From Alphaproteobacteria bacterium GWF2_58_20 (GTDB taxonomy: Bacteria > Pseudomonadota > Alphaproteobacteria > UBA1247): a DNA stretch of 64,000 bases. Shown here in pieces: positions 2,293-29,394 of the stretch. The stretch spans positions 106,386 through 170,385 of the forward strand of contig MEMB01000007.1 of NCBI GenBank assembly GCA_001768735.1, in the 5' to 3' direction. A program made the position numbers and the translations under genes. Every line of letters begins with the position of its first letter. Positions within the stretch are counted from its first letter, which is position 1. Below the pieces are notes generated by a model. That model had not been told where the DNA came from. It did not search any database and saw only the letters and a list, made by a program, of their open reading frames with translations.

Positions 2293-2686
2293 GCCAGACG
2301 GCCTGTAAGCCGGGTTTTGTCTTCGCTGCTTGCGCGGCGATGGATGACCATTCCTCTAGGATGCATGTTGCCATGCACCTCAAGCAACCTACCCGGACGG
2401 CACGCGGGAATGCGTGTGGATGCCTGTTTCACATCCGCCGTCCCTATTCGGTCTTGCTTCTGGCAGGGTTTGCCGTGCCACCTCCGTTACCGGAAGCGCG
2501 GTGCGCTCTTGCCGCACCCTTTCACCCTTGCCCGCAGACGCCTTTCGGCATGTACGGGCGGTTTGCTTTCTGTTGCACTGTCCCTGGGGTCGCCCCCGCC
2601 GGGCGTTACCCGGTACCATATTCCCGTGAAGCCCGGACTTTCCTCCCCGGCGCTTGCGCGTCGCGGCGGCCATCCGGCCATCTGGC
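2293..2686 (-). ncRNA. rnpB: RNase P RNA (bacterial type A)
   Basis: The reverse complement contains the universally conserved P4 element GGGGAGGAAAGTCCGGGCTTCAC (plus-strand ~2625-2647). It also contains the 3' element ACAAAACCCGGCTTACAGGCC. The terminal P1 pairing is GCCAGATGGCC (5') with GGCCGTCTGGC (3'). The length of ~394 nt is typical. ORFs predicted here on both strands have implausible composition. Confidence 0.9.
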
Positions 2687-3401: not shown

Positions 3402-3434
3402 GAAAGGATTTTAAAACATTCAGGGGAAAAGTCC

Positions 3435-4298: not shown

Positions 4299-5131
4299 CA
4301 GACCTTTTCCCTTCTCCAGAAGGTGGGGCTGAACACCAGCGTCTTGGTGCGCGGGTGGCAGCCTTCATGCGCATGGGCGCTCCCCTTTTGGTGGCTGCGG
4401 CAGATGCCCGGTTCTGGGGGGATGAAAGTCCGGCGCGCAGCCTGCAAGAGGAGGCTGCCCTGTTTTCGCGCATGCTGGAATCGGCAGTGACCATTGGCCG
4501 TGCGGCAGCGGAACGGATTGGTGCCTGGAACCGTCCGGGAGATGATTGGGCGCGCTGGACTCTGGCTTCGGCTGCGGCGGGCCTGGTGGCCGCCCATTAC
4601 AGGGCAACAGGGAAAGTCCTGGTTGCGTCGGAGGCGGGGCCCTATCTGGATGCGGTGGCCGAATCGGCGGGAATTGCCGGAGCGCGCGCGGATGCGCCGC
4701 CGGAACATGGGCCGGGAACCATGGATGTCCCCTTGTGGGTGGATATGGTCAGGGCCATGGGCCCGGTGGTGGCTGCCATTGCCCGCCATGCCTTTGCCCA
4801 GGATGAAGAGGCGTTGGCCGTGCGGGTGCTCACCCATTTGCGCAAGGGCACCGGGCGTGCGGTGGATAGGATTCTTGGGGATGCCCCGGATCCCGGGGGA
4901 CGGGCGACTGCGTTTTCTGCCATGATGACGCTGGCGGGCGAGCTTTATGCCGAGTGTCATTATTCGGAAATGGAACGCATCCTTGCCTTGCCGGAGGATG
5001 AGCGTCAGGCTTATGCCGATGCGGAAGGCGAAGAGGAATCGCTGGTCTCCGTATTCCGGGCTTTTGATGCGCGGCTGTCCATGGTGTTTGTCGTGGCGCA
5101 GGCCGTGCGGCAACAGGGAGGCCTGTCGTGA
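4295..5131 (+). CDS. Hypothetical Ala-rich protein with no recognisable motif, translationally coupled on both sides within the T4BSS operon
   Basis: ATGA overlap upstream (4295-4298) and GTGA overlap downstream (5128-5131). The composition is more protein-like than that of the antisense 300-aa ORF. No family was recognised. Confidence 0.5.
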   Translation: MTDLFPSPEGGAEHQRLGARVAAFMRMGAPLLVAAADARFWGDESPARSLQEEAALFSRMLESAVTIGRAAAERIGAWNRPGDDWARWTLASAAAGLVAAHYRATGKVLVASEAGPYLDAVAESAGIAGARADAPPEHGPGTMDVPLWVDMVRAMGPVVAAIARHAFAQDEEALAVRVLTHLRKGTGRAVDRILGDAPDPGGRATAFSAMMTLAGELYAECHYSEMERILALPEDERQAYADAEGEEESLVSVFRAFDARLSMVFVVAQAVRQQGGLS

Positions 5132-5610
5132 GCATTTCGGCAGCTTCGCAGATTTTTGCCAAATGCCTGCTGGTGGCAGCGCAAACCTATAATGTTCCGC
5201 CTGCCGTCCTGATGGGGATCCATTATGTCGAGGGCGGGAAAGTGGGGATGCAGACCGGGCCGAACGTCAATGGAACCTATGATCTTGGTCCCATGCAGGT
5301 GAACACCATCTGGTTGCCGAAGCTGATGCGGGAGTGGCGGGTTGACCGCAGGACGGCGCATGCCTGGGTGCGGGATGACGTCTGTACCAATGTCGGTGTG
5401 GCGGGCTGGATCCTGCGGCAGAAAATCAACGAAGAGGGGGGATCTCTCGCCCGGGGGATCGCTGCCTATCATTCCAAGACGGCGTGGCGGGGAAAAGCCT
5501 ATTTGAAAAAGGTTCTTTTGTCCATGTCCCGGCATGGCCTCATCCAGTTTGAAACCCGGAAAACGGTTCCGGTTATTCCGGCAAAGCGGCTGGAAGTGAG
5601 TGAAAGGTAA
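5128..5610 (+). CDS. Lytic transglycosylase (SLT domain; VirB1/TrbN-like specialised muramidase)
   Basis: Contains LMGIHYVEGG...GPMQVN...AAYHS, which fits the SLT catalytic Glu context and the downstream GPMQ(V/I)N and AYN/AYH motifs. Uses a GTG start overlapping the upstream stop. Confidence 0.7.
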   Translation: MSISAASQIFAKCLLVAAQTYNVPPAVLMGIHYVEGGKVGMQTGPNVNGTYDLGPMQVNTIWLPKLMREWRVDRRTAHAWVRDDVCTNVGVAGWILRQKINEEGGSLARGIAAYHSKTAWRGKAYLKKVLLSMSRHGLIQFETRKTVPVIPAKRLEVSER

Positions 5611-5711
5611 AAAAGGGGAGGGTTTTCTGTTGCATGTAGCCCCTTAATCTGCATAATATGTCACTGGTTTTTGGGTTTTTTCACGACAGGAACGGACGCA
5701 CAGGACAAACC

Positions 5712-6200
5712 ATGAAGCATCGTTCGCTCGTATATTCCATCGTGCCGCTTGCGGCACTTTTCCTTTCCGGGTGTGAGCTGCCTCCTCCGGTTGTCATCCC
5801 GCAGAATCCGGTGGAATCCCGGCTGGCGGATGCGGCTGGACGTGCGGCGGATGCCCTGCAGAAGCTGGCGGCTGTTGAGCAGGTCCGGAGTGGCGTGGTC
5901 GCAGAAGCGCCGGTGTCCAATGTTCCGCCGGAGCTGATGCAGCAGGTCAGCCTGACCTGGGTCGGCCCGATTGAGCCTGTGGTTCGCCGCATGGCGGAAC
6001 GCATTGGTTATGGGTTCGACGTTCTGGGCGTTGCCCCACCGGTTTCGGTGGTTGTTGATGTCAATGCCGTTCGCCGTCCAGCCATTCAGGTGTTCCGGGA
6101 TATCGGCCTGCAGGCTGGCACCCGGGCAGACCTGACCATTGATGCACAAAATCATGTTGTGGAGTTGCAGTATGCGCCGGTTTCTGGCTCGGACCGCTGA
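5712..6200 (+). CDS. dotD: DotD/TraH-family T4BSS outer-membrane lipoprotein
   Basis: Signal peptide and lipobox MKHRSLVYSIVPLAALFLSGC. The C-terminal N0/secretin-like domain reads LTWVGPIEPVVRRMAERIGYGFDVLG..P.....V.V......AIQVFRDIGLQAG.RADL.ID.....VELQY. It sits immediately upstream of the dotC and dotB homologues. Confidence 0.75.
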   Translation: MKHRSLVYSIVPLAALFLSGCELPPPVVIPQNPVESRLADAAGRAADALQKLAAVEQVRSGVVAEAPVSNVPPELMQQVSLTWVGPIEPVVRRMAERIGYGFDVLGVAPPVSVVVDVNAVRRPAIQVFRDIGLQAGTRADLTIDAQNHVVELQYAPVSGSDR

Positions 6201-6981
6201 GGCTCTGGCCTGCAGCTTCCTGCTGGTTTTGCCAGCCGTGGCTGCACAGCCTGTGCCGCTCTCTTCCCTGCAGGAAATTGAAGCGCCGGCAGGTCTTTCC
6301 GAGGAGCTGTCCGGCCTCCAAATCCGCAATGATGCCATTCGGGAAGCCGCCCTTTCCTACGGTGCCCGTGGCGGTCTTTCCGCCCGCACGTTTGAATTGA
6401 TGCTGGAGGTGGCCAAGTACGATACGGAGATGAGCCGGGTGTTTGATTTCCGGCAGCTGCTGGTTCCGGCTCCATCGGGAATGCTGATTGAACCGCCTGT
6501 CATTGATGAATCCCAGTATGCCCTCAAGGTTGCGCCGGAAGGCCAGGAAGCCGCTGTGGCCGATCGGGTGTTTGCGATTGACAAGCCTGCCCGCATTGTG
6601 TCCGCGCCGCGTGACTGGCGTTCCTATATTGAGCGGGAATGGGACATGGTGGAGCCGCCTGTTGCGGTTCTCTTGCCGCGGACGGACGAGGAACGGGCCA
6701 GTTGGCGCAAGTGGGTTTCTGAGGGCTGGAAAATGGGTTTCCAGCAGGCAGACGAGATTTTCCAGGCTGACCTGGACCGGTTGGTCAAGGATTATACCGG
6801 GATGGTGCGGTATCGCATGCTCTTGGCACAGGGCATGGTTTCCGCGCCTTATGCCATGCATCAGGACCGTGGCGTTACCGGCGGGGGCAAGGAAATGCGT
6901 GTGGGGGATCGCGCCATACGCATTACGGGCCCGTCACAGTTTGAACCGAGGGCGGAACGTTGGACACCGGCGGACAGGTAA
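6172..6981 (+). CDS. dotC: DotC/TraI-family T4BSS outer-membrane-associated protein
   Basis: N-terminal signal sequence. Contains IRNDAIREAALSYGARGGLSART...VFDFRQLL...PPVI, which matches my recollection of the DotC family. Its position between dotD and dotB reproduces the conserved dotD-dotC-dotB order. The start was chosen at MRRFLA and overlaps the dotD end. Confidence 0.7.
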   Translation: MRRFLARTAEALACSFLLVLPAVAAQPVPLSSLQEIEAPAGLSEELSGLQIRNDAIREAALSYGARGGLSARTFELMLEVAKYDTEMSRVFDFRQLLVPAPSGMLIEPPVIDESQYALKVAPEGQEAAVADRVFAIDKPARIVSAPRDWRSYIEREWDMVEPPVAVLLPRTDEERASWRKWVSEGWKMGFQQADEIFQADLDRLVKDYTGMVRYRMLLAQGMVSAPYAMHQDRGVTGGGKEMRVGDRAIRITGPSQFEPRAERWTPADR

Positions 6982-7031
6982 CAGAAACGCCGGATCCCGT
7001 TCCCGGGACATGGCCAGCTGAACCGCCCCGT

Positions 7032-8117
7032 ATGCGGGATGAAGATCTCGACGCCCTGCTTTACTGGTGTGTGAATGAACGGGCCTCGGACATCACCCTG
7101 CAAACCGACCGACCTGTTTATGTTGAAGTGGATGGCAAGCTCCGTCCTGCAACCGTTCGTCCGTTGGACGCGGCCGACCTTTCGGTGATGCTCAACCGTG
7201 TTTATGGTGCGGAAGCGCTGGCCAAGCTGGCTTCTGGTACCGACCTCGACCTTTCCTACGAAATCCGGCTGGACCGTAATACCCGTAGCCGTTTCCGCGT
7301 CAACATCACGGCCATTTTGAGCCGTGGGCGCGATTCGGTGCAGATCACCATGCGTGTCCTGCCCAGCATGCCCCCCAGAATGCAGGATCTTGGCATCGAG
7401 CAGGAAATCATTGACGCGTGGGCGCCGCGGCAAGGCCTTGTCCTGGTTACCGGGCCAACGGGCAGTGGCAAAACCACCCTTCTGGCGGCGGGCTGCCGCA
7501 TGCTGGTGGAGCGCGAACAGGGCTGCGGCAAGATGCTGACCTATGAAGCGCCGATCGAATATGTCTATGATGCGGTTACAGGCCCGCATAGCCTGGTGTC
7601 GCAAAGTGAAATTCCTCGCCATCTTCCCAGTTTTGCGGATGGGGTGCGCAACGCGCTGCGCCGGAAGCCGAACATTATCCTGGTGGGCGAATCGCGTGAC
7701 CGGGAAACCGTGGCGGCAGCCATCGAAGCCGGACAGACCGGGCATCTGGTGTATTCAACCGTTCATACCATCGGGGTGGCGGCCACCATGCGCCGAATGG
7801 TGTCGGTGTTTGAGCCGGACGAGCGTACCGAACGCGCCTTTGCCCTGTTGGAAACAATGCGGCTCATTGTCACCCAGGCCCTGGTACCAAAAGTGGGTGG
7901 CGGCCGCGTTGGTGTGCGAGAATGGATGGCGTTTGATGATTCCATCCGTGATCGGCTGTTTGACATTCCGATTGAACATTGGACCACGGAAATCCAGCGC
8001 CTTGTGCCTGACCGTGGCCGGAGCATGGCAGAATCGGCCAAGCGCCTGTTTGAGGCCGGGTTGATTGACAAACGCTGGTTCTTCCTGCTGTCGCAGGAAA
8101 CGGCAAGGGGGGGCTGA
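7032..8117 (+). CDS. dotB: DotB/TraJ T4BSS ATPase (PilT/VirB11-like secretion NTPase)
   Basis: Walker A in LVLVTGPTGSGKTTLL. Contains ILVGE.RD (Asp box) and TGHLV.ST.HT (His box). The N-terminus reads ASDITLQ...PVYVEVDG. The ATG at 7032 is preferred over the in-frame TTG at 6960, which overlaps dotC. Confidence 0.85.
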   Translation: MRDEDLDALLYWCVNERASDITLQTDRPVYVEVDGKLRPATVRPLDAADLSVMLNRVYGAEALAKLASGTDLDLSYEIRLDRNTRSRFRVNITAILSRGRDSVQITMRVLPSMPPRMQDLGIEQEIIDAWAPRQGLVLVTGPTGSGKTTLLAAGCRMLVEREQGCGKMLTYEAPIEYVYDAVTGPHSLVSQSEIPRHLPSFADGVRNALRRKPNIILVGESRDRETVAAAIEAGQTGHLVYSTVHTIGVAATMRRMVSVFEPDERTERAFALLETMRLIVTQALVPKVGGGRVGVREWMAFDDSIRDRLFDIPIEHWTTEIQRLVPDRGRSMAESAKRLFEAGLIDKRWFFLLSQETARGG

Positions 8118-8120
8118 TCC

Positions 8121-8396
8121 ATGTCGGCAGACCTTCATTGGCGCAACACCATGAAACCCGCCCGGTTTTTTGCCCTGGATGCGCGTGCGGCGGCACCGTT
8201 TTTTGTGGTTTTGCTGCATGCCCGCAACTGGACATTTGCCGTGGCGATCATTGTCATCATCGTGTTTGTGGTGGCCGAGCGTCGGGGCCTGACTTTTGAA
8301 GCGGCCATCCGGGCCTTGCGTAGCTGGATTGTGGGGAACCGTCGTCCAGCTGTTATTTTTACAGATAAACGGCGCATGACGGAGTATCTTTCCTGA
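8121..8396 (+). CDS. icmT: IcmT/TraK small T4BSS inner-membrane protein
   Basis: 91 aa. HWRNTMKPARFFALDARAAAPFFVVLLHARNWTFAVAI......V.ERRGLTF closely follows the IcmT pattern (HWRDS...PRFF.LDARAAFP...FLLH.R.WT...). It lies directly after dotB. Confidence 0.85.
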   Translation: MSADLHWRNTMKPARFFALDARAAAPFFVVLLHARNWTFAVAIIVIIVFVVAERRGLTFEAAIRALRSWIVGNRRPAVIFTDKRRMTEYLS

Positions 8397-8520
8397 TGTG
8401 GAAGAAACAGAAAGCCGTTGCATTGAGCGTGTTGAAAACGTATAACATGCAGTGAAGGTTGTGTGGCTGCATTCATTGTGTAGCTGCAGGGGAGTATCAA
8501 TCATGCAGGAAGTCAGGTTC

Positions 8521-9612
8521 ATGAAGCATCAAGCAGTTTTTTCCTTGGCCACCGCCCTGGCATTGGTCATGGCAGCCGGTACCGCCCAGGCGGGGTTCCA
8601 ATGGGTTCCCCAGCCGGAAGTTGCAAAACCCGCCATGATGAATGCGCCGGTGGTGGAAGTTATCCCTGCACAGGACATGGCGCCTGTGGTTGAGATTGAT
8701 GTTCCCGCCATTCGGCCTGCTCCGGCCATGGTGCCGGCAGCTGCGCCCATGGCGGAGGAAGACCTGCCGCCGTGGCTGGCCAAGGAATCCCCCGCTCTTC
8801 CCGTGGTTGTGGAAGAGGAGATGACTGTTCCGGAAGTGAAGGGTGTGATTGAAGCCCCCGTCATGGCTCCGGTGGTTGCTGAAGAACCGGCCCTTGAAGG
8901 GTTTGGCAAGAACATGCCGCTGGTTATCGCCATGCGGCAGATCGTGCCAACGGATTACCAGTTTGCTTTTGGATCTGGCGTCAACATGGGGGCGGCCATT
9001 ACCTGGGAGGGTGGAAAGCCCTGGAATGTTGTCCTGAAATCGGTGCTGGAGCCCATGGGGCTTGGCCTGCGCGTTGTGGACAAGGTTGTCTATGTAGAAA
9101 AAATGGAAAACGGCAGGCCGGTTGAGGGCATGTTTGCAGCAGCCGTGAAGGCGCGTGTTTCCCAGGAACCACCTGTTATGGTGGAAAAGCCGTTGATTGA
9201 GGCTCTTCCTGCCCAGCCTGTGGTGGAAGTTGTTTCCGCCATGGGAGAGCCGATGGAAGAGGATGAATTGATGCCTGCGCTTGGAGAGGCTCCGGAATTG
9301 AGCTTCCTCCCCCTGCCTGTGGTGCGTGAAGTTCAGGAAGAAATTCGCGTACAGCCCAAATGGGTGATCGAACCCGGACGAACCTTGCGTGAGGTTCTGG
9401 AAGACTGGGGCCAGCAGGCAGATTGGGTTGTGGTCTGGCGCAGCGAACGGGATTACCTGATTGAATCCGGGGCCATCTTTGAGGGGGCTTTTGCGCAGGT
9501 CGCTGAAGAAGTCCTGCAGGCTTTTGCCCATGCCGAGCCGCCGGTGCGTGCCACGTTCTATCGCAACAAGACCTTGGTGATTGATGCCGAGGCGATGAGC
9601 GACCTGAACTGA
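8521..9612 (+). CDS. Secreted TcpQ/PilL-like protein: two TcpQ-type beta-domains joined by Pro/Ala/Val/Glu-rich linkers
   Basis: Signal peptide MKHQAVFSLATALALVMAAGTAQA. The central domain reads NMPLVIAMRQIVPTDYQF...ITWEGGKPWNVVLKSVL. The C-terminal domain reads KWVIEPGRTLREVLEDWGQQADWVVVWRSERDYLIESGAIFEGAFAQVAEEVL, typical of toxin-coregulated-pilus Q / IncI PilL-like proteins. Confidence 0.6.
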   Translation: MKHQAVFSLATALALVMAAGTAQAGFQWVPQPEVAKPAMMNAPVVEVIPAQDMAPVVEIDVPAIRPAPAMVPAAAPMAEEDLPPWLAKESPALPVVVEEEMTVPEVKGVIEAPVMAPVVAEEPALEGFGKNMPLVIAMRQIVPTDYQFAFGSGVNMGAAITWEGGKPWNVVLKSVLEPMGLGLRVVDKVVYVEKMENGRPVEGMFAAAVKARVSQEPPVMVEKPLIEALPAQPVVEVVSAMGEPMEEDELMPALGEAPELSFLPLPVVREVQEEIRVQPKWVIEPGRTLREVLEDWGQQADWVVVWRSERDYLIESGAIFEGAFAQVAEEVLQAFAHAEPPVRATFYRNKTLVIDAEAMSDLN

Positions 9613-9662: not shown

Positions 9663-9846
9663 TGTTTGGAAAGCCGTGCATGGGCCTATGCACAAGGGAA
9701 TTTGGTAAGTTTTTGTAAAGAAGTTGGTGTAAACTGGAAGGCGTTGAGAAGGGTTCATTTTTTTTGAATGGAGTTGTTGAACAGCTTTTGAATTGTGTGC
9801 GTACCGGGAATTTTCCTCCTCCTGTTTGGTTGAAGGGATGTGCTGC

Positions 9847-10344
9847 ATGGCTCGGACTGAACACCATATCAAAGCCCATTTACGGCTTATACCCGTCAAG
9901 GCATGTTTGTATGTCGTGCCACCCAAGGCCGAACGCCAACGCATAGCTAAACAGTTTGGCAAGATCCGAAAACAGTTTGCCAAGTTTCTGGCGGAAAATC
10001 ATTTGGAGGATTTGCGTCGTCTGGGCATTTCCGAGGCCGAAATTGATATCATGCGGGAAACTGGACGGGGGCCAGAAGGATATACCGTCCACCATAAGCT
10101 TCCCCGCCATGGTGGCGGTACAAACGACTTTTCCAATCTTGTCCTGATTTCCAGAGCGATCCATTCCGATATCCATTATGAAATGGATCGTCAGCTTTTT
10201 GGATCAAAAAAACCGATTTCCCAGATGAAAACCGGGGATAGTTGCTGGATTGATATTCCTACGCCGGAAGGCATGATTTATATTCCGCCGGTTTTGCCCG
10301 CCCTGGATAACATCCCGGATTCCCTGCGTTTGAAGCTGCGTTGA
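9847..10344 (+). CDS. Free-standing HNH/EndoVII-superfamily nuclease-like protein (paralogue 1)
   Basis: Beta-beta-alpha-Me signature EGYTVHHKLPRHGGGTNDFSNLVLISRAIHSDIH. The gene is visibly more A/T-rich than its surroundings. The start at MARTEHH gives a size matching paralogue 2, though the longer in-frame start at 9793 remains possible. Confidence 0.65.
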   Translation: MARTEHHIKAHLRLIPVKACLYVVPPKAERQRIAKQFGKIRKQFAKFLAENHLEDLRRLGISEAEIDIMRETGRGPEGYTVHHKLPRHGGGTNDFSNLVLISRAIHSDIHYEMDRQLFGSKKPISQMKTGDSCWIDIPTPEGMIYIPPVLPALDNIPDSLRLKLR

Positions 10345-10534: not shown

Positions 10535-11029
10535 ATGGCTGGGAAGGGCATAGACGTCATCACGACGTTTTGTTGCATGCCCAAGATTAACGTCCGATAT
10601 ACCGTTGCTTCCAAAGAGCAGCGTGATCAACGTCGTAATTATTACCATGATGTTGTTCGCAAGCAGTTTGCCAGTCACCTTGCCACACATCATGCTGAAA
10701 AACTCCGCATCCTGGGGATTCCCGAAGAGCAGATCACGATCATGCGTGACCGGGGCGAAGGGCCGGAAGGCTATAATATCCACCACAAGATTCCGCTGCA
10801 TGCCGGTGGGACGAATGATTTTTCCAACCTGATCCTGATGCGGGCGGATTTGCATTGTCATCTGCACCGGTTTGTGGATGCGAAGATCCTGGGGCTCAAG
10901 GTTGGCAAGAGCCGGGATGTTGTCCTGCCTTTTCTGGAAGGGGAGGTCTGTTTTATGCAGCCGTGGAAACAGCCTGGCTGGAATCCCAACGCGCCTCTTC
11001 CTGTGCCGCCTTCCTCCTGTTGGGGGTGA
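10535..11029 (+). CDS. Free-standing HNH/EndoVII-superfamily nuclease-like protein (paralogue 2)
   Basis: Contains EGYNIHHKIPLHAGGTNDFSNLILMRADLHCHLH. It shares the upstream helix region (..RKQFA..LA.HH.E.LR.LGI.E..I.IMR..G.GPEGY) with paralogue 1. Confidence 0.65.
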   Translation: MAGKGIDVITTFCCMPKINVRYTVASKEQRDQRRNYYHDVVRKQFASHLATHHAEKLRILGIPEEQITIMRDRGEGPEGYNIHHKIPLHAGGTNDFSNLILMRADLHCHLHRFVDAKILGLKVGKSRDVVLPFLEGEVCFMQPWKQPGWNPNAPLPVPPSSCWG

Positions 11030-11035: not shown

Positions 11036-11293
11036 ATGGTTGTGAATGTTTCGGTGGAGACACTTTCATGGGCGGATGTTCGGGGTATCGCCCGGGCCTT
11101 GCATAAGGCTCATCCCATGGTTGACCAGTCACTTTTGACCCCCGAAGATGTGCGGCGCATGGTGGTGGAGCTTCCCGGGTTTTCCGACCTGCCGCAGCCG
11201 GAAAATGAAAACATGCTGGATACTGTTGTTTATGCATGGCTTCGGATCGAGAAAGAAGAATGGGAAAACGAATTGGTGGAAGATAATGCATGA
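11036..11293 (+). CDS. IscX (YfhJ)-like small acidic protein
   Basis: 85 aa. LSWADVRGIARALHKAHPMVDQSLLTPEDVRRMVVELPGFSDLPQPENENMLDTVVYAWL aligns position-for-position with my recollection of E. coli IscX ([60 protein letters not shown]). Its stop overlaps the start of the next gene by 8 nt. Confidence 0.6.
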   Translation: MVVNVSVETLSWADVRGIARALHKAHPMVDQSLLTPEDVRRMVVELPGFSDLPQPENENMLDTVVYAWLRIEKEEWENELVEDNA

Positions 11294-12896
11294 TATCCTG
11301 ATGCAGCCCGATGTTCACGAGGAACGCACCCTGTGGGTGCCCTTGGGGGGCAACAACGAGGACACCATCGGCGGCAACAGCCATGCCATCATTCATGAAT
11401 GGGTGGATGAGAATGGGGAAGGGCATCGTCAGGTTGTTCTGGTGGATGCGGGCAACCTGTTTGGTCGTGGCGGCAAGCATTCCGAATTCCTGCCCGTCCT
11501 GGATCCGTTCCTGACCCGGCGGGAGGATGAAGGCAAGGAATTCTCTCCCACCCATCTCCATGCATCGGCCATTTTCATTACCCATGCCCATGAAGACCAT
11601 ATCGCGGCGCTTCAGCATTACATCAACCGTGGCTTCAAGCTGCCGCCCATTTATTGCAGCAAGCTGACGTCCCAGTATGTGATGGATGACCTTGAAGAAC
11701 TGATTTCCGACCCTGACCAGTGGCCGGAAATCCATGTGATGGAGCCGGGTGAGCGGGTGCAACTTGGAAAATTCACGACACGCGCCGTGCCGGTGAGCCA
11801 TTCCGTATCGCAGTCTTTTGCCTACCAGGTGAAGACACCGGGAAGCAATCTCCTGTTCACGGGGGATTTCAAGATTGACCAGGATTTGCTTCTTGGGCCG
11901 ATGACCGACCTCGGCATGCTTGCGGAAATCGGGCGTGAAGGTGTGGATGCTGTCATGATGGACTCCACCCGGGCCGATGTGCCGGGCTTCACCATGACGG
12001 AACATGCGGTACGGGAAACTTTCCGGCGGATCATGAAGCAAAATCCGGACAAGCGCTTTATCACGGCGGTCATGGGCCGGAATACCGAGCGTGTTGCGGG
12101 GCTGGTGAAGGTGGCAGCGGAAATGGGGCGCCAGATTGTTCATGAGGGGCCTGCGCTCAAGAAGACGCTTTATCTTTGCAAGCGTGCGGGGATTGACCTG
12201 CGGTCGTTGCATCCGGATGTGAAGATCCACGATGGCAAGAGCCAGTTGGCCCGGAAATTGGCCCCCAGCCAGATGGCAGGCATGATTACCGGAACCCAGG
12301 CCGAGATCAATGCCGCTCTTGATCTGGCATCGCGGGGAGATCACCGTCGTCTGCGGCTGGATCCGAAAACCGATATCCTGATCATTTCTGCCTCGCTCAT
12401 TCCCGGTAATGAGGCGCGGGTGCATAAATTGGTTGCCGACTTGCGTGCCCAAGGTTTCATCGTCATTGTGTCCCGGGATGAAGACGTCGCTTCATCCGGC
12501 CATCCGGCGGCAGAGGATTGCAAGCTGACAGCGAAAACCACAAATGCCCGCATGGTCATTCCGGTGCATGGCTCGATTGCACACCGGACGGCCCAGTGCC
12601 GCAACATGGCAGAGATCGGCGTGCCCAGCCTGATGGTGGGGAATGGCAATATTGTGTGTTTCGGAGGGCCGCAAGGCACCCGGATTATCGGGCACCGGCC
12701 GCATGGCCTGATTGGCGTTCAGGAAAAGCGGGTGGGTTACAACAGTCCCGACAAGAATGACCCGAACGCGCCCAAGGTCCAGTATGCCTATGAAATGATC
12801 ATGCAGAAACCGAAGCCTTTGGCCCAGCCAAAACCACCGGCGCCAAAACCGCCACAGCCGCGCTATGCGCCGAAAGACGATCCAGCACTGCTGTGA
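11286..12896 (+). CDS. RNase J-fold metallo-beta-lactamase/beta-CASP nuclease-like protein, paralogue 1, with a Pro/Lys-rich C-terminal tail
   Basis: Motifs VLVDAGN, THAHEDHIAA (HxHxDH), VSHSV..S, FTGDFK.D and MMDSTRADVPGFTMTEHAV. Also SSGHPAAED and IPVHGS, the equivalents of beta-CASP motifs. The N-terminus PLGGNNEDTIGGNSH replaces the canonical LGGLGEIGKN. The tail reads KPKPLAQPKPPAPKPPQPRYAPKDDPALL. Confidence 0.75.
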   Translation: MHDILMQPDVHEERTLWVPLGGNNEDTIGGNSHAIIHEWVDENGEGHRQVVLVDAGNLFGRGGKHSEFLPVLDPFLTRREDEGKEFSPTHLHASAIFITHAHEDHIAALQHYINRGFKLPPIYCSKLTSQYVMDDLEELISDPDQWPEIHVMEPGERVQLGKFTTRAVPVSHSVSQSFAYQVKTPGSNLLFTGDFKIDQDLLLGPMTDLGMLAEIGREGVDAVMMDSTRADVPGFTMTEHAVRETFRRIMKQNPDKRFITAVMGRNTERVAGLVKVAAEMGRQIVHEGPALKKTLYLCKRAGIDLRSLHPDVKIHDGKSQLARKLAPSQMAGMITGTQAEINAALDLASRGDHRRLRLDPKTDILIISASLIPGNEARVHKLVADLRAQGFIVIVSRDEDVASSGHPAAEDCKLTAKTTNARMVIPVHGSIAHRTAQCRNMAEIGVPSLMVGNGNIVCFGGPQGTRIIGHRPHGLIGVQEKRVGYNSPDKNDPNAPKVQYAYEMIMQKPKPLAQPKPPAPKPPQPRYAPKDDPALL

Positions 12897-13012
12897 CGGA
12901 GCCTTGCATTTTTTGCAGGGGTGGTGAATGAAAAGAACATGGCTGTTTGCGGGTTTTTCATGCGAAAATGTTCGTATGGAAGTTCCCTTTTTGTCCGGGA
13001 AAGGCAAAAAAC

Positions 13013-14479
13013 ATGTCGGAATGGATTGCATGGGTTGCGCTCGGCGGGACCAATGACCATGGCATCGGCGGCAACTGCGGCCTTCTCATTCATGGAGATG
13101 ATTCCGGTGCGGCTCCGGAAATCCTCATGGTGGATGATGGCTTCAAGTTCGAGGACGGGCATGGCAAGTCCTACCCGGTTCTGGATGACTTCCTGCCCTA
13201 TATCAAGGGCGTTCTCCTGACCCATTCGCACGGCGACCATATCGGCGGCATTTCGTTGCGCATGCCCCGGACGGAGGTCTATCCGCCCATCTACGGTTCG
13301 CAGATGACCATCAACGTGCTGGAGCACAACATCGAGCGCGAAGTGGATGAACGAATTGTGCGGGGGCTTGCACGCAACGTGGTGGCGCCCAGGGAAAGTT
13401 TCCGGGTTGGCGGGTTCGAGGTTGAGCCCGTGCTGGTCAGTCATTCCTCGGTCGAATCCTATGGCTATCATGTGAAGGTGGCGGGTCGGAGCGTTTTCTT
13501 TACCGGCGATTTCAAGTGGGATCTTGACATGCCGCTGGATAGCTCCACCGATGTGGCGCGCCTCATCGAGATCGGGAATGCGGGACTGGATGTCCTTTTT
13601 CCGGATTCGACGGGTGCCGACAATCCCGGCTTTACGCCCAAGGAATGGGCGGTCGCGGCCGATCTGGAAAAGCTGGTGCGCGACAATCCGCAGGTGACTG
13701 AGTTCATCATGCCCATCGGGGCAACCGCGCATCAGCATATTGCCATGCTGGCGGCTGTGGCCATGAGAACGGGCCTGCCCATCGTTTACGAGGGCAAGGG
13801 GCTTGATAACAGCCTCTTGGACCTGTTTCGTTCGGGGTACGAAATGGAAAAGAAATATCACGGTTGCCGGATTGTTCCGGCAAACAGTGCGCTTGGGCAG
13901 GAAATCATCGGACGGGAAGATCGCCGCCTGTGCCTGGGTACTGGTGCGCAGGGCGAGGAAAATGCCTTTTTCGCAAAGGCGCTGCGAGGCTGCAATTATA
14001 ACCTGCGTCTGGATCCCGTGCAGAGCATGGTGGTCAACCTGTCGGGGGTGATTCCCGGCAACGAGAAAACCGCAGATTTCATTTTTGAAAAATGCCGGGA
14101 GCTGGGGATCCGGCAGGCGTTTGCCAAGGCATCCGGCCACGGGGCGTCGGAGGATTTGCTGTGCATGAGTACGGCGCTGCGCCCGGGAGTTGTCATTCCC
14201 CTGCATGGCGACCGGAAAAAAATCGCGGCCCATGTGGCGTTGCAACAGGCGGCCGGGCACGAGGCTGTCGCAACAATCGGCGGGCAGGTGCTGCTGTGGC
14301 GGGATGGGGCCGTTTTGCCGGAAACCATCGGTTTTGTGGATACGGCGCGGATGATCGCGCGGGAAACCGGGTTTGTGCGCGGCCGCAACATCTACCAGTA
14401 CATGCGCGCGGAAGGCTGGTCGAAACAGCCGGAAAACGCCCACAAAATCACGCTTCCCACATGGGCGCCGAAACCCTGA
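13013..14479 (+). CDS. RNase J-fold metallo-beta-lactamase/beta-CASP nuclease-like protein, paralogue 2
   Basis: Motifs LGGTNDHGIGGNC, LMVDDG, THSHGDHIGG, VSHSS, FTGDFKWD, FPDSTGADNPGFTPKEWAV, ASGHGASEDL and IPLHGD. The protein ends ...TLPTWAPKP. Confidence 0.75.
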   Translation: MSEWIAWVALGGTNDHGIGGNCGLLIHGDDSGAAPEILMVDDGFKFEDGHGKSYPVLDDFLPYIKGVLLTHSHGDHIGGISLRMPRTEVYPPIYGSQMTINVLEHNIEREVDERIVRGLARNVVAPRESFRVGGFEVEPVLVSHSSVESYGYHVKVAGRSVFFTGDFKWDLDMPLDSSTDVARLIEIGNAGLDVLFPDSTGADNPGFTPKEWAVAADLEKLVRDNPQVTEFIMPIGATAHQHIAMLAAVAMRTGLPIVYEGKGLDNSLLDLFRSGYEMEKKYHGCRIVPANSALGQEIIGREDRRLCLGTGAQGEENAFFAKALRGCNYNLRLDPVQSMVVNLSGVIPGNEKTADFIFEKCRELGIRQAFAKASGHGASEDLLCMSTALRPGVVIPLHGDRKKIAAHVALQQAAGHEAVATIGGQVLLWRDGAVLPETIGFVDTARMIARETGFVRGRNIYQYMRAEGWSKQPENAHKITLPTWAPKP

Positions 14480-14596
14480 CCCATGCGCCCCGCGCATGGC
14501 TCCCTTGCGAAATCGGAATACCTCCTGCCCGCCATTATCTGTGATACTGGTTCCGTCAGCATATTTCGACACAAACCCGATGTGAAAGGACATGAC

Positions 14597-16120
14597 ATGA
14601 CCGCACCCTATACCGAATGGGTTTCCCTTGGCGGCAACAATGAAGACGATATTGGCGGAAACTGCCATCTGGTGACATATTTTGATGGCAAACATGCGCA
14701 TTCCATTCTGGTTGATGCCGGCAACAAGTTCAGCAAGGTTCCGGGCTATGACCAGTTCTTTCCCATCCTGCCCAAGGGCGTGAAGGCGACCTTCTGCACC
14801 CATGGCCATCTTGACCATATCGGAGCCACCGCGCACCTGCTCAATCACGGACTTCCGGTTCCGCCGGCCGTTTATGGCAGTTCCATGAGCCTCAATGTCA
14901 TGCGCATCCAGCTGGGCCGCGTTTATGGCAATGAAAATCCTTGGCCGCACCTGCACGACATGGAACCGCGCGAGGCCGTCAATGTCGGCCATATCCGGGT
15001 GGAAGGGGTTTCCGTGAGTCACTCCATTCCGCAGGCTATGGGTTTTTATGTGGTCACGCCCACGGCGCGCCTGCTGTTTACGGGCGATTGCAAATGGGAT
15101 ACCCAGCTGCCCATCAAGCCGGTTACGGATGTCAATGGTCTGCAGCGGATTGGTGATCGCGGTCTTGAAGCCCTGTTCCTTGATTCCACCCGTTGCCAGG
15201 TGCCGGGCTTTACCCGGCCGGAGCAAGACGTGCGTGACGAGATCCGCGCGCAGGTTCTGGCCAATCCGCAGGTGGATGAGTTCATCATGCCGGTCATGAG
15301 CACCTCGGTGCAGCGCATGGCCGTTCTTGCCGAGCTGTCGCAGGAGATGAATATTCCCATTATTTATGAGGGACGTTCGATCGAGGACATGCTGGAAGCG
15401 GCCAAGCGTTCCAAAATCGACCTGAAGAAGATGTATCCCGGTGCGCGTATCATGAATGCCCGCAGTTTTCAGGGGCAGGAGATGATCAAGCAGGGAATCC
15501 GGCATTTCCACATGGGTACTGGCACACAGGGCGAGGAAAATGCCTTTTTTGCCAGGGCCATGCGCGGGGAAAGCCAGAATGTTCGCCTTAATCAGGCAAA
15601 AACCCTGGTCCTGTTCCTGGCTTCTGTCATTCCAGGAAATGAGGCTGCATGTGAACCGCAGTTCGCCAAATTGCGCGAGATGGGAATCCGCTATGTCCTG
15701 ATCCACACATCGGGTCACGGCAGTGCAGAAGATCTCTTGAAATACGGGGAAGTGACAAAACCGCGCGTGCTGTTTCCGGTGCATGGTTCCCGCGCCCACA
15801 TCGATCATCATGCCAGCATCCAGCAGGAAGCGGGCCGCAAGGTGCAGATGGCCATGAATGGTGACCGGTGGCGCTGGGATGGGAAGGGGCAGACCCCTTA
15901 TTATGCCGGCCACATCGACACCAAGGCCCTGGCCTGCAAGGAAATGGGACAGAAATGGGTCACCAACCCCAAGAGCAAGACGGGACAGGAAGTCTTGCGC
16001 AATATCTATGAGTACAAGATTGTAGATAGCTGGGATGCGCCGAAGACGGAAAGCGGCATTGTCCTTCCGGCCAAGAAGAAGATCGTCCTGGCGGGCATGG
16101 AACCTGTGGGGCCGAAATGA
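14597..16120 (+). CDS. RNase J-fold metallo-beta-lactamase/beta-CASP nuclease-like protein, paralogue 3
   Basis: Motifs LGGNNEDDIGGNCH, ILVDAGN, THGHLDHIGA, VSHSIPQ, FTGDCKWD, FLDSTRCQVPGFTRPEQDV, HTSGHGSAEDL and FPVHGS. It shares NPQV.EFIMP with paralogue 2. Confidence 0.75.
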   Translation: MTAPYTEWVSLGGNNEDDIGGNCHLVTYFDGKHAHSILVDAGNKFSKVPGYDQFFPILPKGVKATFCTHGHLDHIGATAHLLNHGLPVPPAVYGSSMSLNVMRIQLGRVYGNENPWPHLHDMEPREAVNVGHIRVEGVSVSHSIPQAMGFYVVTPTARLLFTGDCKWDTQLPIKPVTDVNGLQRIGDRGLEALFLDSTRCQVPGFTRPEQDVRDEIRAQVLANPQVDEFIMPVMSTSVQRMAVLAELSQEMNIPIIYEGRSIEDMLEAAKRSKIDLKKMYPGARIMNARSFQGQEMIKQGIRHFHMGTGTQGEENAFFARAMRGESQNVRLNQAKTLVLFLASVIPGNEAACEPQFAKLREMGIRYVLIHTSGHGSAEDLLKYGEVTKPRVLFPVHGSRAHIDHHASIQQEAGRKVQMAMNGDRWRWDGKGQTPYYAGHIDTKALACKEMGQKWVTNPKSKTGQEVLRNIYEYKIVDSWDAPKTESGIVLPAKKKIVLAGMEPVGPK

Positions 16121-16515
16121 CCAGCCTGAAGACGGTTTTGGAGAAACTTGTTGCTGGTGGGGGGCGCAAGCTGCCCCCTGCCAGCGATGCCGGCCTGACC
16201 TCGGCGGAAATGACGCTGGCCGCCCTTGGTGCGCCGGGCCTTCCGCCCGATTTCGTGGCGTTTCTGCGGGTGTCGGATGGTGCCGTTTACCACCATATCC
16301 GCTTTTTTGGCACGGCAGATATTGCCATGGCGCAGGAGGATATGTTCCGGAGTCGTCGGCCGCCGCATTTCCTTGGCCTTGGCCAGGCAGATGACGATGT
16401 ATATGCCTTTGATGCCCGCGATGGCGCCTACAAGATTCTCGACCCCACCGATTGTGAGGATTTTGGCACATTTGCAAGTTTTGCCGAATTGATGGACGAC
16501 GCTGTCGGGGAATGA
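16117..16515 (+). CDS. SMI1/KNR4 (SUKH-superfamily) immunity-type protein
   Basis: 132 aa. Contains LTSAEMTLAALGAPGLPPDFVAFLRVSDGAVY...FFG...........LGLGQADDDVYAFD, which resembles the SUKH-1 pattern (LP.DY..FL...NG). The ATGA overlap with paralogue 3 lies at 16117-16120. Confidence 0.55.
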   Translation: MTSLKTVLEKLVAGGGRKLPPASDAGLTSAEMTLAALGAPGLPPDFVAFLRVSDGAVYHHIRFFGTADIAMAQEDMFRSRRPPHFLGLGQADDDVYAFDARDGAYKILDPTDCEDFGTFASFAELMDDAVGE

Positions 16516-16532
16516 AGTGTTTCCCGGCCCGC

Positions 16533-16566
16533 AAAAAAACCGGCCCTTTGCGGGGCCGGTTTTTTC
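16533..16566. terminator. Bidirectional rho-independent terminator between the nuclease cassette (+) and flgL (-)
   Basis: An A7 run, then hairpin ccggccc-tttgcg-gggccgg, then a T6 run. Confidence 0.75.
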
Positions 16567-16586
16567 ATGGGGAAATTTCCGGGGAA

Positions 16587-17582
16587 TCAGAGATAGTTGA
16601 CGAGGCTGGTTTCCTGCATGGAAGAGATGATGCGGTAAGAGATTTCCAGCTGTGTCTGCATGTTTTGCAGGCGAGTCAAAATTTCCGCCGTGTCCACGTC
16701 CTCCACCTGGCCGATCATCTTGTCCATGACCACCTTGGTTTCCTCGTGACGGGAGGCGGCATCGTCCATGGCATTGGATGCAAGAGCCAGGTTGGCGACG
16801 TCCACATCAAGGGCGCGGCTTCCACTGTCAATAAGGCCCATGGCGGAATCGTAAAGGGCCCAGTAGCCCTCCACATCGTTGCTTTTGTATTCAAGGTTTT
16901 CAATGATGGCCAGGCCCTTCATGATGTCCTTGAACCCATCGTTGTTGGCCTTGATGGTATAATCCACCGTCAGGTTGTCATCCACACGGACGGTGGTTCC
17001 GCCTGCGGCGGCAAGTCCGCCAGACAGGCCGATATCCGTGTCTGAAAAGGCGTCAATGTTCGCAATGGTGGTTGCCGCATCCTGGGTTCCGGCCTGCCAT
17101 GCGGCCATTTCCGCCTGGATATTGGTGTTGAGGGCATCTTCATCTGCCATGGGGGCGCTTTCAATGGCGTCGCCGGCAAAAAGCAGTCGGCCATTGAGGG
17201 AGGTATTGATCAGGTTCTGAATGGAGTCGAGGGCGTTGGCCGCCGATATGTTGACGCTTTCGGAAACCGCATCGCCGCCGCGGAGCTGGCCAACCAGGGT
17301 GGTGAGGACAGCGCGGGCCGAGGACGTCATGTTGTTGACGGCCTTGTCCATGATTTCGGTGTTGCCGAGCGCTGTGTTGATGCTGGAAATGTAGGTGTCC
17401 ATGCGGGCCAGATCGCCACGCATGGAGACAGAGATGGTGGCATCAGTTCCCAGGCCACTGAAGCTTTCGGATTTCAGGCCGCTGGCCAGCTGGCTCTGGG
17501 CCGTGGACATCTGCCCGCGCAGGTTGCGCAGAAGGGCGTTCATGTGGGTGGTCTGGCCGATGTTGGAAGTTGCGATGCTCAT
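16587..17582 (-). CDS. flgL: Flagellar hook-associated protein 3 (FlgL)
   Basis: Flagellin-like N- and C-terminal helices (C-terminus TRLQNMQTQLEISYRIISSMQETSLVNYL). It lies 4 nt downstream of flgK. Confidence 0.7.
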   Translation of the reverse strand: MSIATSNIGQTTHMNALLRNLRGQMSTAQSQLASGLKSESFSGLGTDATISVSMRGDLARMDTYISSINTALGNTEIMDKAVNNMTSSARAVLTTLVGQLRGGDAVSESVNISAANALDSIQNLINTSLNGRLLFAGDAIESAPMADEDALNTNIQAEMAAWQAGTQDAATTIANIDAFSDTDIGLSGGLAAAGGTTVRVDDNLTVDYTIKANNDGFKDIMKGLAIIENLEYKSNDVEGYWALYDSAMGLIDSGSRALDVDVANLALASNAMDDAASRHEETKVVMDKMIGQVEDVDTAEILTRLQNMQTQLEISYRIISSMQETSLVNYL

Positions 17583-17586
17583 GGGA

Positions 17587-19062
17587 TTACCTCACCGTGT
17601 TGAGAAGTTCCTCGAAAATCTGGTCCATGCTCTGGAAGACGCGGGCTGCGGCGGCATAATTGCGCTGCAGCTCGATCATGTTGGCCACCTCTTCGTCGAG
17701 ATTGACGCAGGATGAATCCTGCAGGCGCTTGAGCAGAAGTTCGGAATAGGTTGTTTCCTGCGTTTCCTTGCCTTGTGTGTTGGCGGTTTCCTGCGCGTGC
17801 CGCGAAATGATGGTGCGGGCGTATTCCACCAGGGTGGCCGTGCCTGTCATGCCGGTTGTCAGGGTGCCATCAGGCCCAAGGCCGGATGTACGGAAAGGAT
17901 CATGTGCCGTTCCGGCGGCATCCGCCGTTGTGCCAAAGGTATAGGCCAGGATGTTGTTGATGACGGCATTCGATCCTGCATTCAATCCGCCGGCTCCCGT
18001 GCCTTGCTGGATGAGGGAGGAATCCGCCACCACGGCCGGGTTGACGGTGATGGTGCCGGCAAACCCCACATAGGCGGGGGGCGCATCGGCCGGAATGTTG
18101 CCGGAGGAGTCGGAAAACAGCCGCAATCCCTGGGCATCAAAACGCAGGGCCATCTTGTGGGCGATTTCGTCGATCTGGGCATTCTGCTGGGGCAGGGTGG
18201 TGTCGCGCATTTCGATCAGTGCGCCCAGTTTGCCGCCGGGATTTCCCGCACACAGATCGATGTTGGTGGACGGGTCGCCAACATAGATGCCAGCGGCTGT
18301 TGCGGGATAGGCTGAAGTGGTGGTGATGGACGTTGGGGTAAAGGAAAGCAGTCTGGCTTCGGTGTCTGCCAGAAGCTGGCCATCCCGTGTCTGGACCACA
18401 AGGGTGCCGTCCCCCTGCTTGTAGGAGGTGATTTCCATCTGCCCTGAAAGGGTGTTCACCAGCTGGTCGCGGTAATCTTCAAGGTCGGCCGTGCTGTGGC
18501 CGGCATAGATTTCCGTGACGATGGACTTGTTGATGTCGGCAAGCTCGGTGAGCGTTGCGTTAATTCCCTCAACGGTTGTTTCCATCGCTGTCTGGACATC
18601 GCCCCGCAGTTTTGTGAAGCTTTCGGACAGGCGGTTCAGGGTTTCGGCAACGGTTTGGGCCTGACGCAAGGTGTCGTTCTGCAGAACGGTGGAATCCGGA
18701 ACCGAGGAAAGCTTGATGAAACGGTCATTGAGTGTGCTGATTTCCGCAGCGATGGAGATTTCCGAATCCGGGGAACCATTGAGGTCCTCGATCCGTGACA
18801 TGTAGGTGGCCCGTGTTCCATAGTAGCTGGCGTTGCTGACCTGTTTCCAGTAGTCCTTGAGCAGGGCGCCATCAACATTGCGGCTGGTTTCCCCAACCCA
18901 GACGCCGGAAAACTGGTTGTCGATGAACAGGCTGTGTTGCGGCAAAATTTTCCGGGTATAGCCCGGGGTGGAAACATTTGCCGTGTTTTGCGCCACGAGG
19001 TCGAGGCCGCGTTGGGCGACCTTGATGCCGAGAAGGGCAGATTGCAGGCCTTGTATCGCCAT
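17587..19062 (-). CDS. flgK: Flagellar hook-associated protein 1 (FlgK)
   Basis: N-terminus MAIQGLQSALLGIKVAQRGLDLVAQNTANVSTPGYTRK. C-terminus VNLDEEVANMIELQRNYAAAARVFQSMDQIFEELLN. The start was trimmed to the ATG at 19062. Confidence 0.9.
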   Translation of the reverse strand: MAIQGLQSALLGIKVAQRGLDLVAQNTANVSTPGYTRKILPQHSLFIDNQFSGVWVGETSRNVDGALLKDYWKQVSNASYYGTRATYMSRIEDLNGSPDSEISIAAEISTLNDRFIKLSSVPDSTVLQNDTLRQAQTVAETLNRLSESFTKLRGDVQTAMETTVEGINATLTELADINKSIVTEIYAGHSTADLEDYRDQLVNTLSGQMEITSYKQGDGTLVVQTRDGQLLADTEARLLSFTPTSITTTSAYPATAAGIYVGDPSTNIDLCAGNPGGKLGALIEMRDTTLPQQNAQIDEIAHKMALRFDAQGLRLFSDSSGNIPADAPPAYVGFAGTITVNPAVVADSSLIQQGTGAGGLNAGSNAVINNILAYTFGTTADAAGTAHDPFRTSGLGPDGTLTTGMTGTATLVEYARTIISRHAQETANTQGKETQETTYSELLLKRLQDSSCVNLDEEVANMIELQRNYAAAARVFQSMDQIFEELLNTVR

Positions 19063-19208
19063 GTGATGACTCCTTGCCATAAAGTGGCTCCGCCTGTTTC
19101 CATGCAAGTTGCGGGCCAAGTGTAAAAGCGTGTTTGACGCCATTGCAAAATTCTGCGCCCTGCGCCATAATTCCGGCAATCTGGCGATTGCCTTTCTGAC
19201 AGGAGATC

Positions 19209-22858: not shown

Positions 22859-23155
22859 GGCAACCCTCCGGAGTAAGTGTATGGATGCAACATTGAAACA
22901 TGGGCATCTTAGCTTCCCTTTAAGGGAAAATCAATGGTTCATCTTGAGCTGCGTCCTCATGGTTCCCTCCCGGAATGTCTTGGCGGGCCTTGTGAGTTCC
23001 ATGTTGACCGGCCATGCCCCATGAGGTAAAACAGAAGGGATCCGGAATCTGTCCCTTTTTTAGGCGGGTGCTGGTTTCATGGTTTTGTGCGGAATGTCCG
23101 GGAGGAATGCCGGGTGGTTGAACAGTCTGAAAAAGTGCAGGAAAAATCAGGGGAG

Positions 23156-29375: not shown

Positions 29376-29394
29376 TCAAAGAAGCTGATACCTG

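Follow-up and report, generated by a model that had tools for sequence, protein, structure and literature searches.

RNase J is among the main RNA-decay enzymes of bacteria, and how far it acts as an exo- or as an endonuclease is believed to depend on its C-terminal domain and quaternary structure. The small protein IscX is, to our knowledge, so far known only from iron-sulphur (Fe-S) cluster assembly. Here, we describe a locus in which genes for proteins of both types are found side by side. It lies in a 64,000-nucleotide stretch of the genome of Alphaproteobacteria bacterium GWF2_58_20 (GenBank assembly GCA_001768735.1, contig MEMB01000007.1, positions 106,386 to 170,385), which is called the window below and to which all coordinates refer. 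Three intact open reading frames (ORFs), par1, par2 and par3, follow each other head to tail on the plus strand within one operon and code for diverged RNase J-type proteins, and a gene for a small IscX-like protein overlaps the start of the first. We propose that the three proteins are RNase J-type ribonucleases of a distinct clade, which act with the IscX-like partner and whose gene has been triplicated in this lineage, a reading that we consider slightly likelier to be right than wrong.

The first gene, par1 (11286-12896, plus strand; 536 amino acids (aa)), codes for an RNase J-like nuclease of the type that is tied to IscX elsewhere, with a Pro/Lys-rich tail at its end. It is followed on the same strand by par2 (13013-14479; 488 aa), the most diverged copy, and by par3 (14597-16120; 507 aa), the sister of par2 and the best-conserved copy across three related genomes. 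The three tandem RNase J-fold ORFs that a preliminary description of this DNA had placed at these coordinates are thus indeed present, and with these start codons the two spacers between them measure 116 and 117 nt, as had been reported. The start of par3 at position 14597 is preceded by the Shine-Dalgarno sequence GAAAGGA, which is kept in the related genome L001 (NCBI metagenome-assembled genome GCA_964549205.1), and it agrees with the orthologue starts in the related contig L084 and in protein P0003. An in-frame ATG at position 14483 was rejected as an alternative start, because it lacks a Shine-Dalgarno sequence and the resulting extension is not conserved in L084. The three proteins share 31-38% pairwise identity and are ~26% identical to canonical RNase J. 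An antisense ORF of 1223 codons covers par2 and par3 (12863-16534, minus strand); it has no Pfam match, its codon-position GC pattern is compatible with an antisense frame, and it is most likely spurious.

The Pfam domains Lactamase_B_2, RNase_J_b_CASP and RMMBL are found in the array proteins, with PF22505 (RNase_J_b_CASP) scoring above its threshold in par1 and par3 but below it in par2 (18.7 versus 27). NCBIfam models of RNase J match all three proteins over ~400 residues with E-values of 1e-42 to 1e-60, compared with ~1e-9 at best for other metallo-beta-lactamase (MBL) families, and among sequences of the Protein Data Bank (PDB) the best matches are RNase J1 and RNase J chains (E 1e-42), the next family being TTHA0252 (2.5e-4). 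An AlphaFold2 model of par1, built from a 75-sequence alignment, reached a predicted local distance difference test score (pLDDT) of 91.4 and a predicted template modelling score of 0.91. When this model was compared with the PDB by Foldseek, the best 42 matches were all RNase J (E 1e-40 to 1e-30), with a root-mean-square deviation of ~2.7 Å over ~471 columns and template modelling (TM) scores of 0.86-0.90 to chains without the C-terminal domain; TTHA0252 and CPSF73 came next, at 1e-20.

The catalytic residues were checked in an alignment with 65 canonical RNase J sequences, at columns with a conservation of 85% or more among the latter. MBL motifs 1-4 are kept in par1 (D54; H100, H102, D104, H105; H172; D194) and at the equivalent positions of par2 and par3, and these columns are 97-100% conserved across the 65 canonical sequences. 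The same holds for beta-CASP motifs A, B and C (D226, H406 and H428 in par1 and their equivalents in the other two copies). Residues S404-G405-H406, which correspond to the 5'-phosphate site, and the stacking residue F59 are present in all three copies; the base-stacking residue R269 is kept in par1 and par3 and replaced by a histidine in par2 (H242). The roles of the S-G-H site and of the Phe/Arg base sandwich have been defined previously (PMC4652760, PMC7864078). Most of the sequence motifs that had been listed in the preliminary description could be found again: HxHxDH occurs as HAHEDH in par1, HSHGDH in par2 and HGHLDH in par3, and the VSHS and DST....PGFT..E segments are present in all three proteins. 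Two of the listed motifs need a correction. FTGDFK.D applies to par1 (FTGDFKID) and par2 (FTGDFKWD), but par3 reads FTGDCKWD, with a cysteine in place of the phenylalanine; and SGH is found three times and PVHG in par1 and par3, but par2 has PLHG. The two findings named there as speaking against the assignment, placement in a non-nuclease MBL family and loss of key metal ligands after proper alignment, were both looked for and neither was found, because the best profile and fold matches are to RNase J and all ligands are retained. The three proteins therefore look catalytically competent, as had been suggested from their motifs. In summary, par1-par3 carry the RNase J fold and the complete set of catalytic and 5'-phosphate-pocket residues.

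Nevertheless, par1-par3 are not canonical RNase J. The C-terminal dimerisation domain PF17770 has no match in any of the three; the par1 model ends in a beta-hairpin (residues 474-506) followed by the disordered Pro/Lys-rich tail. The proteins also share the unusual N-terminal signature that had been noticed before, which reads LGGNNEDTIGGN in par1, LGGTNDHGIGGN in par2 and LGGNNEDDIGGN in par3. In a word-indexed search of 5.8 billion proteins, no more than seven relatives (P0002-P0008) were closer than canonical RNase J; all have GGNN(E/P)xxIGGN or a close variant, and none has PF17770, the domain carried by nearly all canonical RNase J matches. When 1.84 billion cluster representatives were searched exhaustively with a profile, ~40 of them scored above the canonical plateau of ~300 bits; 30 of these were inspected, and nearly all have the signature or a close variant and no C-terminal domain. 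The clade and canonical RNase J were split in 99 of 100 bootstraps of a neighbour-joining tree. Two scans of a species-representative genome collection returned canonical RNase J only, with at most 34% identity; PLSDB plasmids likewise contained canonical RNase J and no clade member, and the viral contigs of IMG/VR two canonical RNase J genes and no clade member. Judged from these searches, GGNNxxxIGGN is not peculiar to the window and marks a branch of the RNase J family that is rare, has not been studied so far and lacks the C-terminal domain.

The tails of the clade nucleases are mostly basic, and in a clade mostly from human-gut metagenomes they are K/G-rich with isoelectric points (pI) of up to 12; those of par1, par2 and par3 are less basic (pI 9.5, 10.5 and 8.3, respectively). 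Metagenome contigs L111, L116, L144, L145, L151, L160, L164, L175 and L140, mostly from human gut, code for IscX-linked RNase J-like proteins of this kind, in which the nuclease ends in a K/G/R-rich low-complexity tail of pI 10.5-12. A second clade of ~620-640 aa proteins (L091, L100, L118, L166, L187, L193) has no IscX-like gene and is preceded by a divergent 161-aa ORF. Among the canonical RNase J proteins, P0131 (609 aa) contains two copies of a large internal segment that starts at the HS(I)AD motif, which represents either an internal duplication or an assembly artefact.

The gene that overlaps par1 (11036-11293, plus strand) codes for a small acidic protein of 85 aa with a pI of ~4.4, and its 3' end and the par1 start share 8 nt (ATGCATGA). 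The protein scores 50.8 bits with the IscX model TIGR03412 (cut-off 40.4) and matches PF04384 with an E-value of 5e-13; Escherichia coli IscX (PDB 2BZT) aligns with it over the full length (E 3.5e-8). No isc genes were recognised among the scanned ORFs of the window or in related loci. An IscX-like gene is also found directly upstream of distant clade members, which are 30-48% identical to par1, in L084, L085, L086/L087, L088 and L089. Sampling that was unbiased toward IscX was obtained by scanning metagenome contigs for a DNA pattern encoding GGNNxxxIGGN, which returned 119 stretches, 26 of which encode clade members; IscX-like ORFs were then detected with a hidden Markov model (HMM) built from IscX-like proteins. 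At 20 of 34 clade loci and at none of 80 canonical RNase J loci, the nuclease gene is immediately preceded on its own strand by an IscX-like ORF, which overlaps it or lies up to ~130 nt away. The genes that flank these pairs are unrelated to each other and include those for ribosomal protein S4, phosphofructokinase, a porin and helix-turn-helix regulators, and the IscX-nuclease pair therefore behaves as an autonomous module. Distances between the IscX-like proteins track those between the nucleases with r = 0.96, a value reached in none of 2000 permutations. This correlation shows co-inheritance and not interaction. The IscX-like proteins are strongly acidic throughout (pI 4.1-4.6), and in the literature searched we found no paper that links IscX to RNase J. 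A role of the IscX-like protein as immunity protein for the HNH nucleases encoded upstream, which are described below, was considered but rejected as the main explanation, since an HNH gene is missing at 16 of the 20 pairs. In two of the related contigs, L085 (103-2857) and L086 (4185-6327), genes for a RecD/TraI-like AAA_30 helicase and for a protein of 129-143 aa lie in front of the module, which has the order HNH-IscX-nuclease in L085 and no detected HNH gene in L086; neither the helicase nor the small protein is encoded in the window.

The three copies are not equally related. The neighbour-joining tree joins par2 and par3 as sisters in 100% of bootstraps, in agreement with the earlier remark that they are closer to each other and with the segment NPQV(T/D)EFIMP, which occurs in those two only. 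par1 clusters with its own orthologues, also at 100%, and a single in-lineage origin of par1 and the par2/par3 pair is recovered in only 40 of 100 bootstraps. A second RNase J-type ORF was absent from the flanks of all 106 other loci (80 canonical RNase J loci and 26 metagenomic clade loci), and a tandem array is therefore unusual, as had been supposed. Tandem copies are found only in the narrow lineage of the window, L001 and L084. The gene order in L001 is IscX-par1-par2-par3-YrhA-flgL-flgK, and in L084 it is IcmT-TcpQ-HNH-IscX-par1-par3, after which the contig ends. An apparent frameshift in par1 of L001 was rejected, as the break is a run of Ns marking a scaffold gap. Since the whole array is kept in this second genome and substitutions in par1, par2 and par3 are concentrated at third codon positions, the suggestion that the duplications are old and have been retained gains support.

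The rate of divergence differs markedly between the genes. Compared with L001, the window proteins are identical at 66% of positions for par1, 87% for par2, 82% for par3, 81% for the IscX-like protein (57 codons), 90% for the YrhA-like protein encoded after par3 and 79% for FlgL, and the second HNH gene (HNH2) is not on the L001 contig. The corresponding values for L084 are 48% for par1, 75% for par3 (206 aligned codons before the contig end), 61% for the IscX-like protein and 52% for HNH2; no par2-type gene precedes the end of this contig, and the genes for the YrhA-like protein and FlgL are not on it. In these comparisons of the window with L001 and L084, par1, HNH2 and the IscX-like protein hence diverge much faster than par2, par3, the YrhA-like protein and FlgL. 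From their substitution patterns, par2 and par3 are under ordinary purifying selection and evolve like ordinary genes. It is therefore the IscX-linked, ancestral-type copy, par1, that evolves fast together with its upstream neighbours.

The operon extends from two HNH paralogues through the IscX-like gene and par1-par3 to a gene for a 132-aa protein and a terminator facing flgL and flgK. The first HNH gene (HNH1; 9793-10344, plus strand) is a 183-aa ORF, for which the gene call of the source contig starts at 9847, and its product has a weak Pfam HNH match. HNH2 (10535-11029, plus strand; 164 aa) ends 6 nt upstream of the IscX-like gene. Both proteins align lengthwise with the toxin domains at the C-termini of LXG and pre-toxin-TG polymorphic toxins and with stand-alone plasmid HNH proteins, with 33-36% identity over ~100-125 aa, E-values of 1e-11 to 1e-16 and a shared motif pattern; the match of HNH2 to a Polaromonas HNH protein has 36% identity and an E-value of 4e-16. 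At 164-183 aa, HNH1 and HNH2 have no LXG or TG region. In L084, L085 and L147, too, the IscX-like gene has an HNH orthologue upstream. At the other end of the operon, the 132-aa protein (16117-16515, plus strand), whose start overlaps the par3 stop by 4 nt (ATGA), resembles the YrhA family: NF038335 matches it with an E-value of 1.8e-8 but with 34.4 bits against a cut-off of 55, and an independent HMM built from five YrhA seeds gives an E-value of 2e-6, with weak pairwise comparison. A homology search with this protein returned only its own sequence, and a single-sequence structure model was unusable (pLDDT 40.6). In six plasmid loci with a homologous HNH toxin domain (L211-L216), the next gene is annotated as "YrhA family protein" in five, and the sixth is interrupted by an IS21 element. 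By analogy, the YrhA-like protein is a candidate immunity-type partner of the HNH genes. The operon thus has a toxin-type nuclease at one end and a candidate immunity-type gene at the other. PADLOC gave no matches for any gene of the operon, and matches in PHROGs were limited to a generic "metal-dependent hydrolase" and, for the HNH genes, two families of unknown function.

The operon lies inside a cluster of Dot/Icm-type (type IVB) secretion system (T4BSS) genes (~3363-9612 and 23087-33138), which is interrupted by the nuclease operon and by flgL and flgK (16587-19179, opposite strand). The upstream part of the cluster codes for a thioredoxin-like protein, SLT, DotD, DotC/TraI, DotB, IcmT and a TcpQ-like protein, and the downstream part for two DotI proteins, DotH and DotG/TrbI, with further ORFs that are unassigned. 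Ordinary chromosomal genes are found elsewhere in the window, such as those for AsnS, UbiD, PntB, RsmB and RNase P RNA. PntB matches proteins of Skermanella and Azospirillum at 70-72%, a loose indication of an alphaproteobacterium close to Rhodospirillales; AsnS has matches in mixed phyla, none of them above 72%. The RNase P RNA is full-length and of bacterial class A (2290-2685, minus strand; 304.5 bits), and the long ORFs that lie over it (2104-2700 and 2244-2768 on the plus strand, 2389-2919 on the minus strand) are probably spurious. The window also codes for a 701-aa protein with Lcl C-terminal domains (23-2128), which are known from the Legionella collagen-like protein, and for a 7TMR-DISM membrane adenylate/guanylate cyclase (36618-38774, minus strand). 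Together with the T4BSS, these two proteins would fit a host-associated lifestyle.

Spacer 1, between par1 and par2 (12897-13012, plus strand), has a 7-bp hairpin just past the par1 stop (~12902-12920) and a terminator-like hairpin at 12955-12982, which is followed by a T-rich tail; it is poorly conserved, with 61% identity to L001 and indels. Spacer 2, between par2 and par3 (14480-14596, plus strand), has an 8-bp hairpin (CCAUGCGC/GCGCAUGG) directly past the par2 stop (14481-14499) and the GAAAGGA sequence before the par3 ATG. This hairpin and the Shine-Dalgarno sequence are kept in L001, where the spacer is 82% identical, about the same as the coding DNA. Rfam returned nothing credible in or near either spacer, and the fold z-scores against shuffled sequences are modest (-2.4 for spacer 1 and -1.8 for spacer 2), so that we claim no structured RNA element for the spacers. 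We speculate that processing or attenuation at the hairpins may determine the relative amounts of the three products. A bidirectional intrinsic terminator (16534-16567), composed of an A-run, a CCGGCCC...GGGCCGG stem and a T-run, separates the operon from the convergent flgL gene, and this intergenic region is 90% identical in L001.

We propose that par1-par3 would cleave RNA as 5'-end-dependent exoribonucleases, endoribonucleases or both, as their conserved residues suggest. The acidic IscX-like protein, the synthesis of which appears to be translationally coupled to that of par1, could bind the nuclease or its basic tail and act as a regulator, an adaptor or a metal donor. par2 and par3 would have been born by duplication within the lineage and might since have taken on specialised roles, perhaps as hetero-oligomers like those of RNase J1 and J2. 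Several observations weigh against this proposal. The proteins remain far below the curated cut-offs for RNase J, with 150-204 bits for the NCBIfam models and 189.8, 150.0 and 175.9 bits for par1, par2 and par3 with TIGR00649, for which 400 bits are required. Also missing is the domain that makes RNase J1 dimerise and tilts it toward exonuclease activity, and the Staphylococcus epidermidis enzyme without its C-terminal domain is monomeric and shifted toward endonuclease activity (PMC7864078). The link to IscX is one of gene order only, and 14 of the 34 clade loci have no IscX-like gene. Furthermore, a type IVB secretion cluster surrounds the operon, in which toxin-type HNH genes and a YrhA-type gene are also found, and rapid evolution such as that of par1, the IscX-like gene and the HNH genes is seen more typically in conflict genes than in housekeeping RNases. 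A bolder proposal is that the IscX fold has a second, so far undescribed role as the dedicated partner (inhibitor, adaptor or metal donor) of an RNase J clade without the C-terminal domain. In this lineage the pair would have grown to three nucleases and been joined into one operon with an HNH toxin/YrhA immunity pair next to a T4BSS, and the nucleases would act in conflict between cells or in the manipulation of a host and not in housekeeping RNA decay. We put this forward tentatively and consider it doubtful as a whole.

Alternatively, the operon could be a nuclease cassette aimed at other cells or at a host, which the neighbouring Dot/Icm-type system might deliver. In that case, the HNH proteins would be toxins that the YrhA-type protein neutralises, and the RNase J-like proteins would be additional nuclease toxins or effectors restrained by the IscX-like protein. 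The resemblance of the HNH domains to the ends of LXG and pre-toxin-TG toxins, with YrhA next to them on plasmids, points in this direction, as does the position between T4BSS genes, the order IcmT-TcpQ-HNH-IscX-nuclease being found in L084 as well. A small, acidic gene product encoded upstream and overlapping the nuclease start is an antitoxin-like layout, diverged tandem nuclease copies resemble toxin cassette arrays, and par1, HNH2 and the IscX-like gene evolve faster than the flanking genes. However, most IscX-nuclease pairs elsewhere have no HNH, YrhA or secretion genes nearby and sit among ordinary chromosomal genes, and the clade is absent from the plasmids and viral contigs searched. 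The lack of a PADLOC match, of a delivery domain and of a recognisable secretion signal, together with the ordinary purifying selection on par2 and par3, argues in the same direction, and we regard such a function as unlikely.

We consider it quite improbable that the three proteins cooperate with the HNH nuclease in the processing of DNA ends during repair, recombination or DNA transfer, in the manner of beta-CASP DNA nucleases of the SNM1/Artemis type or of archaeal RNase J in a DNA-damage complex. HNH nucleases typically act on DNA, and one is encoded directly upstream of the module in four lineages. The AAA_30 helicase gene two to three genes upstream in L085 and L086 would fit this function, and an archaeal RNase J takes part in a RecJ3/4 complex that is required to survive DNA damage (PMC10470531). 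The helicase is, however, limited to these two related contigs and absent from the window, the nearest sequences and structures of par1-par3 are all ribonucleases, and conservation extends to the residues with which RNase J holds RNA, namely the S-G-H 5'-phosphate site and the Phe/Arg base sandwich. That the array consists of one working enzyme and of copies that are redundant relics or non-catalytic scaffolds is very improbable indeed, for although par2 is the most diverged copy, with a beta-CASP Pfam score under threshold, a His for the stacking Arg and PLHG, par1 evolves fast and a weakly active paralogue is already known from Firmicutes in RNase J2 (PMC7864078), every metal ligand is kept in all three copies, all three ORFs are intact in two genomes once the Ns in L001 par1 are recognised as a scaffold gap, and substitutions in all three are biased toward third positions.

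What is new about par1-par3 is not their fold but the clade to which they belong, with its lost C-terminal domain, its basic tail, its coupling to IscX and its expansion in this lineage. The adjacency to IscX suggests a nuclease-partner pair that has not been described before. Due to the loss of the domain and the persistence of the IscX neighbour, the pair represents a testable new combination of a nuclease with a regulator or adaptor and a possible second function of the IscX fold. In addition, the three-copy array would allow sub-functionalisation to be compared within one operon, and the setting next to HNH and YrhA genes and a T4BSS makes it conceivable that enzymes of the RNase J type were co-opted as weapons or effectors.

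The closest described enzymes are RNase J1 and J2 of Bacillus subtilis and Staphylococcus (PDB 3ZQ4, 6K6S, 6K6W), which give the best sequence and structure matches to par1-par3. They have the MBL and beta-CASP core, the catalytic motifs, the S-G-H site and the Phe/Arg sandwich in common with them, and there, too, paralogues occur within one genome. In contrast to RNase J1 and J2, par1-par3 have no PF17770 and carry a 3-residue insertion in the N-terminal GG..G.N hairpin, and the three adjacent copies and the upstream IscX-like gene of the window are both without counterpart at the 80 canonical loci. The archaeal RNase J of Methanolobus psychrophilus (PDB 5HAA) also lacks the bacterial C-terminal domain and is of similar length; however, it is a weaker match (sequence E 1e-20, TM score 0.67), and the window clade branches with bacterial sequences and has a C-terminal hairpin and basic tail of its own. 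IscX/YfhJ of the isc operon (PDB 2BZT, 1UJ8) is acidic like the strongly acidic window protein, which passes the NCBIfam cut-off and aligns with it over the full length, whereas the IscX-like gene of the window adjoins no isc gene and its type is coupled to a nuclease gene in 20 loci. Finally, the HNH genes and the YrhA-type gene of the operon can be compared with LXG and pre-toxin-TG loci such as those of B. subtilis plasmid NZ_CP064819, Listeria pLIS4 and Polaromonas plasmid 2, in which the HNH domain is homologous and a YrhA-type gene belongs to the same operon. Unlike in those loci, the HNH protein of the window stands alone, is duplicated and has no delivery domain, and the YrhA-like gene, the match of which stays below the curated cut-off, follows ~5 kb downstream of HNH2, with the IscX-like gene and the three nuclease genes in between.

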